Source: Escherichia coli
Lineage (GTDB): Bacteria > Pseudomonadota > Gammaproteobacteria > Enterobacterales > Enterobacteriaceae
Length of the DNA: 5,842 bases
NCBI RefSeq assembly: GCF_003334405.1
Contig: NZ_QOWM01000032.1
Reading direction: 5' to 3' (one strand)
Shown here piece after piece: positions 1 through 5,842 of this stretch; within the stretch, counting starts at the first letter, position 1, and every line of letters begins with the position of its first letter. A model generated the notes under the pieces. It was given only the letters and a program-made list of their open reading frames with translations, was not told the origin of the DNA and ran no database searches. The translations under genes were made by a program, and so were the position numbers.

Positions 1-6
1 GCTGTT

Positions 7-1824
7 ATGCTTGTTGCGGCATGGTTTGCAGGTTCATTTATTTTCTTTGTGCTTTACTTCAGCCAGATAAAGAATCTGAAACCATTGAAGGCTGTGTTCA
101 GATCCATTGATGCGTACAGGATGGATATTTTTACAGACAGCCTTACTTTATCTGTTGTGACTACGGATATCAGAGTTTTAGCCTTTGTTGCACTTGGAGC
201 AGGATTTGTCGTGTCTCTTATCATCCCTGTTGCGGCGTTGATAAAACTGAACGAGAAGAAAGAAAATATTTTCGGTGATGCGCGATTTGCGACAATTAAT
301 GATATTCGTGAGTCTAACAGTTTCACGCTTGACGGTGACGAAAAAGACGGGATTATCGTTGGTATAAAAGATAAGAAAATCATACGCTATGTGGGAGCAG
401 CATTCAGTGCTATGGGAGCCGGAACAAGGGCTGGTAAAGGTGCTGGTATAGTCATCACTAATCTTATGAAGTACTGGTGGAGTGTTATTATTCTCGATCC
501 AAAAAGGGAGTGTTTTAATATCACCAGTCTTATCAGGAAGGTGATTTTAGGTCATGAGGTTTATAAATTTGATCCCTTTAGTCCGGTAACGCACCGCTTT
601 AACCCTTTGTATTATGTCAGCATGGGAACGAGTGAAGGTTTTAATCAGCTTGAAAATCTTGCGTTGATTATTTACCCCTATAATACAGATGGTGCGGATG
701 CTGGTAGCTATCTTAATAAGACGGCGGGTGGTGTTTTTAAATCTTATGCTGTCGCTTTATGGTTTATGATTAAGAATGATAAGGCTGGACTAAAAACGCT
801 TGATATTGAGCCTGTCTTCTCAATGTCTAAAATTAATCAGCTTTTTGAGCGTGCAGAACCCGAACATCTTCTTTCATTCATGAATGATATTCGTTCAGAA
901 TTAAGGGGGAAAGACAAAACGCTTGCTGATATTGGTGTCGCTGGGCTTAAGGCATTCATTGAGATGGAGGATAAAACAAAAGCACAACTCAAAAGCAACT
1001 TTCTTAATGGATTATCACCGTTTGCTAACCCTAATGTGGCAAATGCTACTGATGGAAATGATTTTGATTTGCGGCAGGTGCGGAAAAAGCGGATGACAAT
1101 TTATTTCTGTATTTCTGGTGATAATGCCAGGTTGGCTGAAAAAATAACAAATATTTTCTTTCAGCTTGCTATACAGGTGAATCTTGAAAAGATGCCAACG
1201 GATGATCCGGAAATAAAGCATGACTGCCTTTTTCTACTGGATGAATTCCCGTCAATTGGTGCTGTAGATTACATCAAGAGTAAATCTGGTCTCATTGCTG
1301 GTTACAAGCTGAAATTGTTGATTGTTTACCAGGTCGGCTCTCAGCTTGAGGAAATCTACAGTTATGCAGGCAGTAAAACATTACTGGCAAGTGCACCCTG
1401 CAAAATTGTTTATTCCGCTTCTGATGTTAAAGATGCGCGGGAGTTATCAGAAGCGATGGGGACACGAACAGTAACTATCGGTTCGAAAAGCAAAAGTCGT
1501 AGTCGTGGAGGAACATCGAGATCTGAATCAGAAAGCCTTATTGAGCGTCCACTGGTAACAACAAATGAACTACTTACACTGAAATTTAGTGAAGAAATCC
1601 TGGCAATGAAGGGAGAAAACCCGATTCGTTGTGAAAAGGCATTTTACTATCTCAATGAGTATTTCTTTGGTGATTTTGTGAAGGTTGCTCCGGAACTTGC
1701 AAACATTTTCCCCAGGAAGAAAGGAAAGCTGGTTATGCCTCCACAGAAAGTATTTGAAAATGAAATCGTCGCAAAAGGGTATCTGGCAGTAAAAGATGTT
1801 CCTGATCTCGATAAAGCGGCGTAA
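7..1824 (+). CDS. virD4: Type IV secretion coupling protein (T4CP), VirD4/TraG/TrwB family; possibly 5'-partial, since the reading frame is open from position 1
   Basis: 605-aa ORF. Two N-terminal hydrophobic helices (MLVAAWFAGSFIFFVLYFS; VLAFVALGAGFVVSLIIPVAALI) precede a Walker A P-loop GAGTRAGKGAGIV, close to the VirD4 APTRSGKGVGVVIP motif as recalled. Downstream blocks ILDPKRECFNITSL and YKFDPFSP resemble VirD4 LDVKGELFELTS and FKFSPLDP. A Walker-B-like hydrophobic stretch followed by DE (LFLLDEFP) is present. Frame has no stop in nt 1-6, so the true start may lie upstream of the window. TAA stop at 1822-1824. Confidence 0.9.
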   Translation: MLVAAWFAGSFIFFVLYFSQIKNLKPLKAVFRSIDAYRMDIFTDSLTLSVVTTDIRVLAFVALGAGFVVSLIIPVAALIKLNEKKENIFGDARFATINDIRESNSFTLDGDEKDGIIVGIKDKKIIRYVGAAFSAMGAGTRAGKGAGIVITNLMKYWWSVIILDPKRECFNITSLIRKVILGHEVYKFDPFSPVTHRFNPLYYVSMGTSEGFNQLENLALIIYPYNTDGADAGSYLNKTAGGVFKSYAVALWFMIKNDKAGLKTLDIEPVFSMSKINQLFERAEPEHLLSFMNDIRSELRGKDKTLADIGVAGLKAFIEMEDKTKAQLKSNFLNGLSPFANPNVANATDGNDFDLRQVRKKRMTIYFCISGDNARLAEKITNIFFQLAIQVNLEKMPTDDPEIKHDCLFLLDEFPSIGAVDYIKSKSGLIAGYKLKLLIVYQVGSQLEEIYSYAGSKTLLASAPCKIVYSASDVKDARELSEAMGTRTVTIGSKSKSRSRGGTSRSESESLIERPLVTTNELLTLKFSEEILAMKGENPIRCEKAFYYLNEYFFGDFVKVAPELANIFPRKKGKLVMPPQKVFENEIVAKGYLAVKDVPDLDKAA

Positions 1825-1832
1825 AGGAGAAC

Positions 1833-2255
1833 ATGATGAAGAAATTAGTGGTTTTATTGATTTCCATTCTTGCTGGTTGTTCATCACCGCCAGAGCCAAC
1901 ACCCGTGCAGTTTGAAAAGGCAAATGAAGTGATCAATCCCTCATTGCCATATGTCCCCGATTTTCACGGTGTCATAAAGTCAGACGTTAGCGGTAAAGGA
2001 TGGGTTTATGAGATCACTTCCTTATCCGGAGTACAGGCCAGAACGCCGACGTTTTATTACGCTCTGGCTCATGCGGACAGGATTGTAGTGACAACACATG
2101 ATGCTGGGCTGTGGTTTCGAATCAGAGATCTGTTGAAGATGGAAGGGGCAACAGCAGTCGTGGAATGGCGAAACGAGAAAAGTTTTTTACCTGAACAGGG
2201 AAAAATAGTTTTCATTAAAGCACAAAACGAGGTGAAAAATGACTGGAAAAAATAG
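1833..2255 (+). CDS. Lipoprotein, function unknown (candidate entry-exclusion or T4SS-associated outer-membrane lipoprotein)
   Basis: 140-aa ORF. RBS AAGGAGA at 1824-1830, tandem ATG at 1833 and 1836. N-terminus MMKKLVVLLISILAGCSS has a basic n-region, hydrophobic core and lipobox L-A-G-C (type II signal peptide). Starts 9 nt after the T4CP stop. No family recognised by eye. Confidence 0.7.
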   Translation: MMKKLVVLLISILAGCSSPPEPTPVQFEKANEVINPSLPYVPDFHGVIKSDVSGKGWVYEITSLSGVQARTPTFYYALAHADRIVVTTHDAGLWFRIRDLLKMEGATAVVEWRNEKSFLPEQGKIVFIKAQNEVKNDWKK

Positions 2256-4528: not shown

Positions 4529-4571
4529 AAGCAGCCACTAAAGACAAATCAGATACTTTTTGAGGGTTATT

Positions 4572-5147
4572 ATGCAATATGCATTGTTTGATGGATTTGA
4601 ACGAAAGTTTTTGCTGGATGCTCTTGAATTTGGTGTTCTGAAGGACTGGAAAGAAAATCCGGTAAAAGAACTTCCTGATATTGATGAATCTGTTCACCCC
4701 TTCCATGTCTGCTATGGTGGATATTTATTAAATCCTGGTGTTTCAGATTCAGATATTAGCAGAAAAATAAAAGACCAGACAGGATTCTGGCTGGCAGCTA
4801 TTGATGATACCCGCATGGATTGTCATTCAATAGCTTATTATGATATTCACACACTCCCTCTGATTTCGTGTGGACATCAAAAGATAGTTCCTTTTGCAGC
4901 GTTAATAAAAGCTGATGAATGCATCATTTCTAAAATTTCTGCGTATTCTGGTTTTGCCGTAACAGCCTTTTTGAGAATTAAAGACCAGGATATTGCAATT
5001 AATATACTTAACCGTGAAGGAATTTTTGCCTTTAATGGCTGTGAACGCAGGTTCAGACAACCTGTAGGTGAAGATAACTGGAAACAGGCAGTGTCAGAAG
5101 AACGTGCTATTCGCTGTGCAAACAGACTAATTCAGTGTAAAGGATAA
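4572..5147 (+). CDS. Hypothetical protein (~191 aa) translationally coupled to topB; Cys/His-rich, no family recognised
   Basis: The ORF track opens at 4560, but that codon is TTG. The first ATG is at 4572 (MQYALFDGF...) with GAGGG at 4563-4567 as RBS, so 4572 is the preferred start. Stop TAA at 5145-5147, only 4 nt before the topB ATG, and the topB RBS (AAGGA, 5140-5144) lies inside this ORF's 3' end. Contains several Cys/His (HVCYGG, DCHS, SCGH, NGCERR), suggesting possible metal binding. Confidence 0.6.
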   Translation: MQYALFDGFERKFLLDALEFGVLKDWKENPVKELPDIDESVHPFHVCYGGYLLNPGVSDSDISRKIKDQTGFWLAAIDDTRMDCHSIAYYDIHTLPLISCGHQKIVPFAALIKADECIISKISAYSGFAVTAFLRIKDQDIAINILNREGIFAFNGCERRFRQPVGEDNWKQAVSEERAIRCANRLIQCKG

Positions 5148-5151
5148 CAAA

Positions 5152-5842
5152 ATGAGACTTTTTATCGCAGAGAAACCCGCAGTAGCAAATGATATTGTTA
5201 AGGCACTTGGAGGCAATTTTACCCGCCATGATGGCTGGTTTGAAAGTGATAACGCAATTGTGACTAACTGTTTTGGTCATATTATCGAATCACAGCCACC
5301 GGAAAACTATAATCCCGAATACAAAGCCTGGAAGGTTGAAACGCTTCCTTTACGTCTTTATCCCGTGAAGTATCAGCCTGTTGAAAGTGCAGCAAAACAG
5401 GTTAAAACGATTCTCGAACTTATCAGACGTGGAGACGTGACTGAAATTGTTCACGCTGGCGATCCTGATGATGAGGGACAGCTACTTGTTGATGAAGTCC
5501 TGGAATATGCCGGCAACACAAAACCCGTAAAGCGCGTTCTGATTAACGACAACACGCTTCCGGCAGTGAAAAAGGCGCTGGCAAATCTTAAAGATAATCG
5601 TGATTTCAAAGGGCTTTACCTTAAGGCGCTGGCGCGTTCAGTTGCCGATGCCGTCTATGGCTTCTCCATGACGCGTGCTTACACCATTCCTGCAAAAGCC
5701 AGAGGATATCAGGGCGTTCTGTCTGTCGGGCGCGTCCAGACTCCCGTTCTTGGCCTGATTGTGAATCGTACCCGTGCTAACCAGAACCATAAATCCAGTT
5801 TTTACTACACCATGACCGGAGTTTTTCAGCGTGGTGCTGATG
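5152..5842 (+). CDS. topB: DNA topoisomerase III (type IA), plasmid-encoded TopB homologue; 3'-partial, continues beyond the window
   Basis: Manual translation of the open frame from ATG 5152 gives MRLFIAEKPAVANDIVKALGG ... EIVHAGDPDDEGQLLVDEVLEY ... YQGVLSVGRVQTPVLGLIVNR. These match the Toprim N-terminus and conserved blocks of E. coli TopB as recalled (MRLFIAEKPS; HAGDPDREGQLLVDEVLDY; VLSVGRVQTPVLGLVV). No stop codon before the window end; absent from the ORF track because it is open-ended. Confidence 0.92.
   Translation, partial: MRLFIAEKPAVANDIVKALGGNFTRHDGWFESDNAIVTNCFGHIIESQPPENYNPEYKAWKVETLPLRLYPVKYQPVESAAKQVKTILELIRRGDVTEIVHAGDPDDEGQLLVDEVLEYAGNTKPVKRVLINDNTLPAVKKALANLKDNRDFKGLYLKALARSVADAVYGFSMTRAYTIPAKARGYQGVLSVGRVQTPVLGLIVNRTRANQNHKSSFYYTMTGVFQRGAD

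Follow-up and report, generated by a model that had tools for sequence, protein, structure and literature searches.

We analyzed a 5,842-nt stretch of Escherichia coli DNA (contig NZ_QOWM01000032.1 of assembly GCF_003334405.1), hereafter the window, in which guanine-plus-cytosine (GC) content is uneven from gene to gene. By megablast, the window corresponds to positions 16081-21922, minus strand, of NZ_CP070012.1, a complete E. coli plasmid of 32,611 bp, with one mismatch at window position 3034. PLSDB and MOB-suite typed this plasmid as IncX4 with a MOBP relaxase and an MPF_T secretion system. The annotated gene table of the whole replicon contains the syntenic IncX backbone (pir, par, hns, topB, pilX/virB and taxA/B/C), and the whole replicon is collinear with another IncX4 plasmid at 96-98% identity. 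Within this IncX4 conjugative plasmid, the window extends from taxB to topB. An initial annotation had proposed that its low-GC small genes are cargo set between higher-GC backbone genes, and that the nuclease gene nuc came from a different source. We consider it probable that the uneven GC content is instead the sum of coding constraints, of different histories of the segments, and of a variable AT-rich slot.

Gene content of the window

Every gene of the window is on the + strand. The first, taxB (1-1824), encodes the type IV coupling protein (T4CP) and lacks its first 13 codons; it belongs to the IncX4-specific backbone and has a GC content of 40.3%. A Cag12-family lipoprotein gene (1833-2255; 43.5% GC) and a trbM/kikA-family gene (2239-2544), both annotated in NZ_CP070012.1 like taxB, follow. 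In the latter, referred to as trbM, IncX4-specific DNA gives way to a module shared with IncX1. Downstream lie orf85 (2550-2807; 38% GC), a conserved open reading frame annotated as hypothetical in IncX4 and IncX1, and orf144 (2889-3323; 35.2% GC), a membrane-protein gene of the IncX1-type allele. The single mismatch to NZ_CP070012.1 is inside orf144 and specifies Ala in the window and Val in the record.

The start of nuc (3320-3835) overlaps the orf144 stop by 4 nt. The Nuc product matched the Pfam SNase family PF00565 (E=8.6e-24) over model positions 1-106 of 107, phmmer matched it to 282 PDB thermonuclease sequences (best E=5e-11), and it has the motifs DGDT, IDAPE and DRYGR and a hydrophobic N-terminus ending in ANA. 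Judged by these matches, it is a protein of the staphylococcal-nuclease (SNase) family, for which Ca2+-dependent nuclease activity and export are predicted.

To the right of nuc, orf134 (3851-4255) encodes a hypothetical protein with a CxxC...CxxC zinc-ribbon-like motif (WCDCDKC...CLSCHK); its Pfam zinc-ribbon matches were weak, and the label "exodeoxyribonuclease V subunit beta" given by one record was unsupported by any search. The next open reading frame, orf70 (4316-4528), is unannotated in the PLSDB gene table and in most matching records. A Shine-Dalgarno ribosome-binding site, AAGGAGG (4304-4310), lies 5 nt before its ATG, and the product has two hydrophobic stretches that could span the membrane. 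Full-length homologues with the same two stretches are present in IncI2 (L006 4950-5198, 82 amino acids) and IncX1 (L010); they are conserved as proteins, with DNA identity of ~69%. On this evidence, orf70 is probably a genuine gene for a small membrane protein, overlooked by annotation pipelines. The window ends with orf191 (4572-5147), an annotated hypothetical gene that lies immediately upstream of topB in IncX4, IncX1 and some IncI2 plasmids, and with the first 691 nt of topB (5152-5842), annotated as a type IA topoisomerase gene, which opens a topB-hha-hns domain of 45% GC.

None of orf85, orf144, orf134, orf70 and orf191 had a significant match in NCBIfam, PHROGs, PADLOC or Pfam. Weak family matches of orf85 (a VirB11 fragment), orf134 (an AccD zinc ribbon) and the lipoprotein signal peptide (spanin/LvhB7) were treated as non-significant.

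Base composition of the window and of the replicon

The GC content of the whole plasmid is 41.0%. Over 200-bp windows of the replicon, the standard deviation (SD) of GC was 0.059, compared with 0.035 for a binomial expectation (1.7x). A penalised optimal-partition fit, with boundaries judged against the shuffled replicon, placed 10-17 boundaries in the replicon and 0 in 20 shuffles at the same penalties. By both measures the heterogeneity exceeds that of a homogeneous composition, and the GC mosaic seen by the initial annotation is confirmed. The fit replaced a recursive Jensen-Shannon binary segmentation, which was insensitive to short islands and picked out the insertion sequence IS1 alone (53-55% GC on NZ_CP070012.1).

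Three change-points fall inside the window, at 3482/3483, 3822/3823 and 5042/5043, and the segments that they delimit were unchanged across the penalties tried. The first segment (1-3482; 40.4% GC) forms one domain with the entire 13-kb type IV secretion system (T4SS). It is followed by a GC-rich island of 54.1% (3483-3822; stable at penalties 6 and 10), which is the catalytic core of nuc, and by an AT-rich domain of 34.8% GC (3823-5042), which consists of a variable gene slot and most of orf191. The segment from 5043 onward (44.8% GC) runs through topB, hha and hns to parA. At the level of genes, nuc has 48.4% GC as a whole and 51.7% in its mature domain, topB has 45.9% as a whole and 46.9% in the part inside the window, and orf70 is the most AT-rich gene (26.8% GC). 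Over 60-nt windows, GC spans 28-55% in taxB, 20-47% in orf144 and 37-60% in topB. The hand-counted samples of the initial annotation agree with these figures for the nuclease catalytic region (about 55%), only in part for topB (45-60%), and are somewhat off for taxB (about 37%); of the genes put at 27-32%, orf70 is near and orf144 is off. Imprecision of this kind is to be expected of 60-nt samples.

Given that the mosaic is real, a separate question is whether it is exceptional. The SD of GC at 200 bp was 0.054 in the window and 0.058 outside it, and 59% of all stretches of 5842 bp on the circular plasmid are as variable as the window or more so. At a scale of 500 bp, peaks as high as nuc and troughs as deep as orf70 occur elsewhere on the plasmid. 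The most AT-rich 200 bp of the plasmid (27% GC) is the orf70 region, and pir and the leading-region genes are AT-rich to the same degree as the slot. The sliding-window analysis of the complete replicon, which the initial annotation had itself proposed as a check, thus places the fluctuation of the window within the normal variance of the replicon, and by that standard the window is not special. Compositional patchiness is normal for NZ_CP070012.1 and for plasmids in general. We also observed a 429-bp direct repeat (99% identical, 55% GC) outside the window, at 4882-5308 and 6957-7384 of the plasmid (L001). The two copies enclose hyp5331, the J-domain gene and everything between them, a block with the hicAB/taxA side on one flank and pir on the other, and are two of the strongest GC peaks of the plasmid.

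We then split each GC deviation into a part due to amino-acid content and a part due to synonymous codon choice, by conditioning on each protein sequence and using the T4SS and tax genes as codon-usage reference. For the nuc mature domain, the amino-acid effect was +0.055 and the synonymous effect +0.057 (z +4.1); the nuc island at 3483-3822 gave +0.074 and +0.062 (z +4.1), and the signal-peptide region of nuc +0.029 and -0.076 (z -2.7). Both effects were -0.07 for orf70 (z -3.1 to -3.3). For orf144, the amino-acid effect was -0.034 and the synonymous effect -0.023, the latter not significant (z about -1.7 to -1.8). The whole topB gene gave +0.02 and +0.03, with the largest synonymous z of the plasmid (+5.0), and taxB gave a synonymous z of +1.3. 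Over all 40 genes the synonymous z had an SD of 1.84, and the heterogeneity is therefore plasmid-wide.

Oligonucleotide signatures separate the two conspicuous segments. The nuc core lay at the 97th percentile of tetranucleotide distance, as the sole atypical segment with the T4SS as reference, and the topB domain lay at the 84th-87th percentile. The AT block at 3823-5042 was unremarkable, ranking at the 30th percentile of fragments of the same length for dinucleotides and at the 42nd for tetranucleotides. The tetranucleotide check suggested by the initial annotation singles out the nuc core but not the AT-rich block.

Histories of the segments

We compared the window with common IncX4 plasmids (L002, L003) and with IncX1 (L010), IncX3, IncX5, IncI2 (L005, L006), IncFIA (L014) and IncK2/Z plasmids. 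When the whole IncX4 plasmid was compared with IncX1, long DNA similarity was confined to 14194-17377 (97.2%) and 18104-19590 (94.1%); elsewhere there were only short patches of 75-88% near the replication origin and dqlB, and T4SS scraps of 67-79%. In window coordinates, identity to IncX1 is 94% over 2333-3819 and 96.6% over 4546-5842, and the 97.2% block continues through topB and hha into hns. Among the genes concerned, orf85 has 95-97% DNA identity to IncX1 and orf191 has 96.6%. The similarity to IncX1 starts at 2333, and nothing to the left of it aligns. taxB has no blastn similarity to IncX1, its product is 39-41% identical to those of IncX1, IncX3 and IncX5 at saturated synonymous divergence (dS), and the Cag12-family lipoprotein is 28-32% identical to its counterparts in the same three groups. 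The amino-acid identity of TrbM between IncX4 and IncX1 is 68%, compared with 32-43% for the genes upstream. The main junction (~2300-2333, inside trbM) is accompanied by no change in GC.

Within the IncX4 group, the same stretch has a different pattern. Compared with the common IncX4 plasmids, the window is 99.4% identical over 1-2300, ~77% over 2301-2500, 91-98% over 2501-2887 and ~96% over 4546-5842. The divergent patch at 2301-2500, inside trbM, is ~77% identical to common IncX4 and ~80% to IncX1, whereas those two are 97% alike there and the flanks of the patch are at 98-100%. The middle of trbM is thus a third allele, confined to this patch, of an exported protein associated with conjugation, and diversifying selection may act on it. 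At 2888-3427, which covers orf144 and the nuc signal peptide, the window is without similarity to common IncX4. There, the orf144 position is occupied by an unrelated membrane protein of 102 amino acids that is 83% identical to the IncX3 one, and Orf144 itself has 97% amino-acid identity in IncX1 plasmids, usually beside a thermonuclease gene. The orf144 site is an allele replacement, not an insertion, and shows no presence/absence polymorphism.

The protein identities give the same contrast between the module and the rest of the plasmid. For the T4SS, T4CP and relaxase, IncX1, IncX3 and IncX5 are 69-95% identical among themselves and IncX4 is 36-43% identical to them; the Pir and ParA proteins of IncX4 and IncX1 are likewise 36-43% identical. 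TopB is 99% identical between IncX4 and IncX1 and 44% between IncX1 and IncX3; the window protein is 85% identical to that of IncI2 and 44-45% to those of IncX3 and IncX5. By Nei-Gojobori estimates, which are close to saturation for some pairs, topB dS was 0.08 to IncX1, 0.86 to IncI2 and saturated to IncX3 and IncX5. The dS of T4CP, cag12 and virB11 was saturated to IncX1 (proportion of synonymous differences, pS, 0.72-0.81), IncX3 and IncX5. By these values, no single tree accommodates the protein identities, and topB is not vertically inherited IncX4 backbone.

IncI2 plasmids carry nuc-orf134-(variable)-topB-hha, and common IncX4 and IncI2 are 99.5% identical in the nuc core and orf134 and 86% in topB. 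In the mcr-1 IncI2 plasmid pJD053-MCR-59K (L005 9246-10970), the PAP2 gene of the mcr-1 cassette lies ~0.7 kb beyond the hha gene downstream of topB; in this plasmid, the resistance insertion adjoins the module common with IncX4.

The nuc gene combines a conserved position with a history of its own. In IncX1, IncX3, IncX4 and IncX5, the interval between trbM and topB contains nuc, preceded by a small membrane-protein gene that overlaps its start, and the recurring low/high/low/high GC pattern together with the synteny is conserved in these groups and IncI2. At the DNA level, nuc is 66-72% identical to thermonuclease genes on IncX3, IncF and IncK plasmids. Its dS was 0.15 (IncX1), 0.41 (IncI2), 0.54 (common IncX4), 0.86 (IncX5) and 1.48 (IncX3). 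The amino-acid identity of Nuc between IncX4 and IncX3/IncX5 is 71-77%, and 71-80% when IncI2 is included. Given that the neighbouring backbone proteins (T4CP, Cag12, TopB) are 28-45% identical in these comparisons, the similarity of nuc indicates recent common ancestry; the low divergence of nuc and topB is not due to purifying selection alone.

The allele in the window is itself a patchwork. Its signal-peptide part (3320-3427) is closest to IncI2, 3428-3616 is closest to IncX5 and ~64% identical to common IncX4, and 3617-3835 is 98% identical to common IncX4 and IncI2. A breakpoint at 3618-3622 was supported by maximum chi-squared analysis (max-chi2 = 55.4, permutation p<=0.0005); 34/44 informative sites are IncX5-like on its left and 0/44 on its right. 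The composition of nuc is stable across hosts: GC is 0.445-0.518 and GC at third codon positions 0.40-0.54 in IncX4, IncX1, IncX3, IncX5, IncI2, IncFIA and IncK2/Z, where its neighbours range from 0.34 to 0.58. The gene is GC-poor on IncF (55%) and IncK backbones and GC-rich on the 40% IncX4 backbone. Therefore, the composition of nuc belongs to a circulating gene pool and is no mark of recent insertion into NZ_CP070012.1. The initial annotation was right that nuc has its own history, as its identity, dS and synonymous z indicate; it was not inserted, being at the same position in all IncX subgroups examined. In the IncFIA plasmid pU12A_C (L014 4580-5924), the thermonuclease gene adjoins hha and a DUF2726 gene, and the IncX4 plasmid also has hha and DUF2726 (L001 9782-10309). 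The pairing of nuc and hha recurs on unrelated backbones.

The content of the slot between nuc and orf191/topB differs among IncX4, IncX1, IncX3, IncX5 and IncI2. The occupants are orf134 and orf70 in the window and, on other plasmids, orf134 alone; orf134 with a hypothetical gene of 106 amino acids and DUF6012; a hypothetical gene with DUF6012 (IncX1); PcfJ (IncI2); an AAA ATPase; an ATP-binding protein (IncX3); or three hypothetical genes (IncX5). On every plasmid compared, they are AT-rich (34-43% GC). Common IncX4 and IncI2 plasmids share an identical orf134 homologue, WP_001218543.1, and orf134 was not found in the IncX1, IncX3 and IncX5 plasmids compared. Alignment with common IncX4 is close from orf134 to 4279. 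The segment at 4280-4545, which carries orf70, has no match in L002 and L003, and homologous DNA is present in IncI2 L006 and IncX1 L010. Presence/absence polymorphism was thus observed for this segment and for the slot as a whole. Comparison with related plasmids, a further check named by the initial annotation, supports the cargo idea for the slot with orf70 and not for orf144. A repeat search of the window found no convincing flanking repeats for the slot or the module, and no integrase, transposase or other mobility gene is annotated in the window. We rejected the idea that orf191 and DUF6012 are diverged paralogues (BLASTP E=0.29).

Upstream of orf144, the repeat search found an intergenic hairpin (2823-2864) with 20-nt arms that are 90% complementary and a 2-nt loop, whose role might be that of a terminator, a regulator site or a site of recombination. 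Conservation in IncX5 is 87.5% over the hairpin region (2823-2886); two IncX3 plasmids in which the surrounding DNA is unalignable match its 3' flank (2858-2886) at 96.6%. In IncX3, one copy is upstream of trbM and a weaker inverted copy just downstream of nuc. An Rfam scan of the window matched no family, and a promoter/terminator scan returned fewer sites than in shuffled sequence. GC skew is positive nearly throughout the window, and the cumulative skew climbs steadily; the common orientation of the genes is consistent with a single long transcription unit from the T4SS into topB.

Explanations for the uneven GC content and comparison with known systems

The account that we favor, and regard as probable, has three parts. 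First, coding constraints would account for roughly half of each GC deviation, with T-rich codons in signal-peptide and transmembrane segments and a nuclease domain rich in Gly, Ala, Arg, Pro and Trp. Second, from ~2300-2333 rightwards, a module trbM'-orf85-membrane protein-nuc-(variable slot)-orf191-topB-hha-hns' would have been swapped by recombination among IncX4, IncX1 and, in part, IncI2, the other genes being unrelated or distant. The topB and nuc dS values to IncX1 (0.08 and 0.15), next to saturated T4CP, cag12 and virB11, indicate such an exchanged module. Within it, nuc would come from a pool that circulates among many enterobacterial plasmid families, with its own GC content of ~45-52% on any backbone and with alleles that are patchworks. 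Third, small AT-rich genes would be gained and lost in the slot between nuc and orf191/topB. We infer that the exchange took place by recombination between co-resident plasmids, and silencing of AT-rich DNA by the adjacent H-NS/Hha pair may be why the AT-richness of the slot is tolerated or favoured.

Several points weigh against this account. With 1-3 plasmids per Inc group, the sample is too small to fix the direction or the number of exchange events. The dS of nuc to IncX3 (1.48, pS 0.65) nears saturation, and strong purifying selection on Nuc could explain part of its high amino-acid identity. The shuffling null ignores codon structure and overstates the significance of the change-points, and with segments of only 340-1220 bp, the power of oligonucleotide signatures is low. 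The exchange mechanism is indirectly derived, flanking repeats and a mobility signature being absent, and the silencing part is carried over from the literature on IncX H-NS.

A more ambitious version of the favored account can be put forward only tentatively. The DNA that begins in mid-trbM, includes nuc, orf191, topB and hha and ends in hns might be a discrete exchangeable "nucleoid/DNA-handling" module that moves among conjugative backbones otherwise unrelated (IncX4, IncX1 and partly IncI2), with a hypervariable AT-rich slot that collects small genes (orf134, orf70, DUF6012, PcfJ, ATPases), maybe with establishment or anti-defence functions, kept silent by its own H-NS/Hha.

It is possible, but we rather doubt, that the AT-richness of 3823-5042 is more than a foreign trace and is kept by selection, so that the plasmid's own H-NS/Hha can silence the genes until they are needed. 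hha and an H-NS-family gene come directly after topB, the slot is AT-rich (34-41% GC) on every plasmid compared, whatever its genes, and the GC minimum of the plasmid lies in it. Plasmid H-NS strongly represses conjugation in IncX3 and R6K, and AT-rich DNA is the preferred target of H-NS (PMC11880322, PMC11796372). However, pir and the leading-region genes are equally AT-rich, and Sfx-type H-NS proteins may prefer less AT-rich DNA (PMC11796372).

The cargo model of the initial annotation, in which a higher-GC backbone, chiefly topB and the T4CP gene, was broken by recent low-GC cargo (orf144 and orf70), with nuc as an insertion from elsewhere, now appears unlikely. It draws support from the absence of the orf70 segment from common IncX4, the varying content of the slot, the atypical synonymous sites of the nuc mature domain and the significance of the AT block as a change-point segment, and as regards the variable slot the initial annotation is supported. 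It is already contradicted for orf144 and topB. The membrane-protein gene lies in the compositional domain of the backbone, its synonymous z is not significant, and its counterpart position is kept in four IncX subgroups. The supposed higher-GC backbone holds up on neither side: the T4SS and taxB are at ~40% GC, and topB is itself part of the exchanged module shared with IncX1 (97% DNA identity). Nuc lies at the same site in IncX1, IncX3, IncX4 and IncX5 and is therefore no insertion, and the AT block has an unremarkable oligonucleotide signature with neither flanking repeats nor mobility genes. Moreover, recognised IncX cargo, namely insertion-sequence elements, is GC-richer than the core (PMC11796372), as is IS1 here; the rule that low GC means cargo therefore does not transfer.

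We find it very improbable that the GC differences are purely a by-product of protein make-up with one shared history for all genes. Protein make-up alone contributes +0.053 to +0.074 to the excess of nuc, and -0.07 and -0.03 to the deficits of orf70 and orf144, respectively, and the same GC pattern recurs in every relative; but the synonymous deviations match the amino-acid effects in size (z +4.1 for the nuc mature domain, -3.3 for orf70 and +5.0 for topB), the dS and identity contrasts show different histories, and there is a breakpoint within nuc. Sampling noise in short windows is scarcely credible as an explanation, for although a 60-nt sample has an SD of ~6%, several figures of the initial annotation were off by 3-8 points and the variance of the window is typical of the replicon, it is already refuted by the shuffling controls, the 1.7x excess over the binomial SD and the conservation of the pattern in other plasmids.

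GC content is a poor guide to the true mosaic of the window because the main junction is GC-silent and the most conspicuous GC island marks a gene of conserved position. GC-based cargo scans on small AT-rich plasmids will misassign genes. mcr-1 is carried chiefly by IncX4 and IncI2 plasmids, and tet(X4) and blaNDM are found on IncX1 and IncX3. The trade in nuc-topB-hha means that the backbones of these epidemic plasmids (IncX4, IncI2, IncX1 and IncX3) recombine with one another, and topB and hns are unsafe markers for IncX phylogeny. Our literature search, of incomplete coverage and no proof of novelty, found no paper on the exchange of nuc-topB among IncX1, IncX4 and IncI2, on its AT-rich slot or on chimeric nuc alleles.

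The literature already recognises topB-hns as a module of the IncX backbone and puts the similarity between the transfer regions of IncX4 and IncX3 at only 15-46% (PMC11880322, PMC11796372). The plasmid of the window has the order VirB/pilX T4SS-taxB-cag12-trbM-...-topB-hha-hns, like the IncX backbone of the 2012 paper as relayed by PMC11880322 and with the topB-sfx/hns module of PMC11796372. In these accounts, topB-hns is regarded as vertical backbone common to the group; unlike this, topB, orf191, nuc, orf144 and orf85 are here 94-97% DNA-identical to IncX1, and an 85%-identical topB-hha module also sits on IncI2. Plasmid-borne staphylococcal-nuclease-like genes of the IncI complex and IncF resemble nuc in the SNase domain, the N-terminal signal peptide and the 66-72% DNA homology. 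They differ in that nuc of the window is a three-part patchwork and is paired with an overlapping upstream membrane-protein gene whose alleles are unrelated. As in genomic islands recognised by atypical composition, an AT-rich segment coincides with presence/absence polymorphism; unlike them, the window has no integrase, tRNA, direct repeats or atypical oligonucleotide signature in that segment. Modular recombination between plasmids is textbook knowledge. The sharp identity breakpoints, incongruent gene histories and intragenic chimeras are those of mosaic evolution by recombination between co-resident replicons, with nothing conceptually different here, and the finding is an ordinary instance of known modular plasmid evolution.

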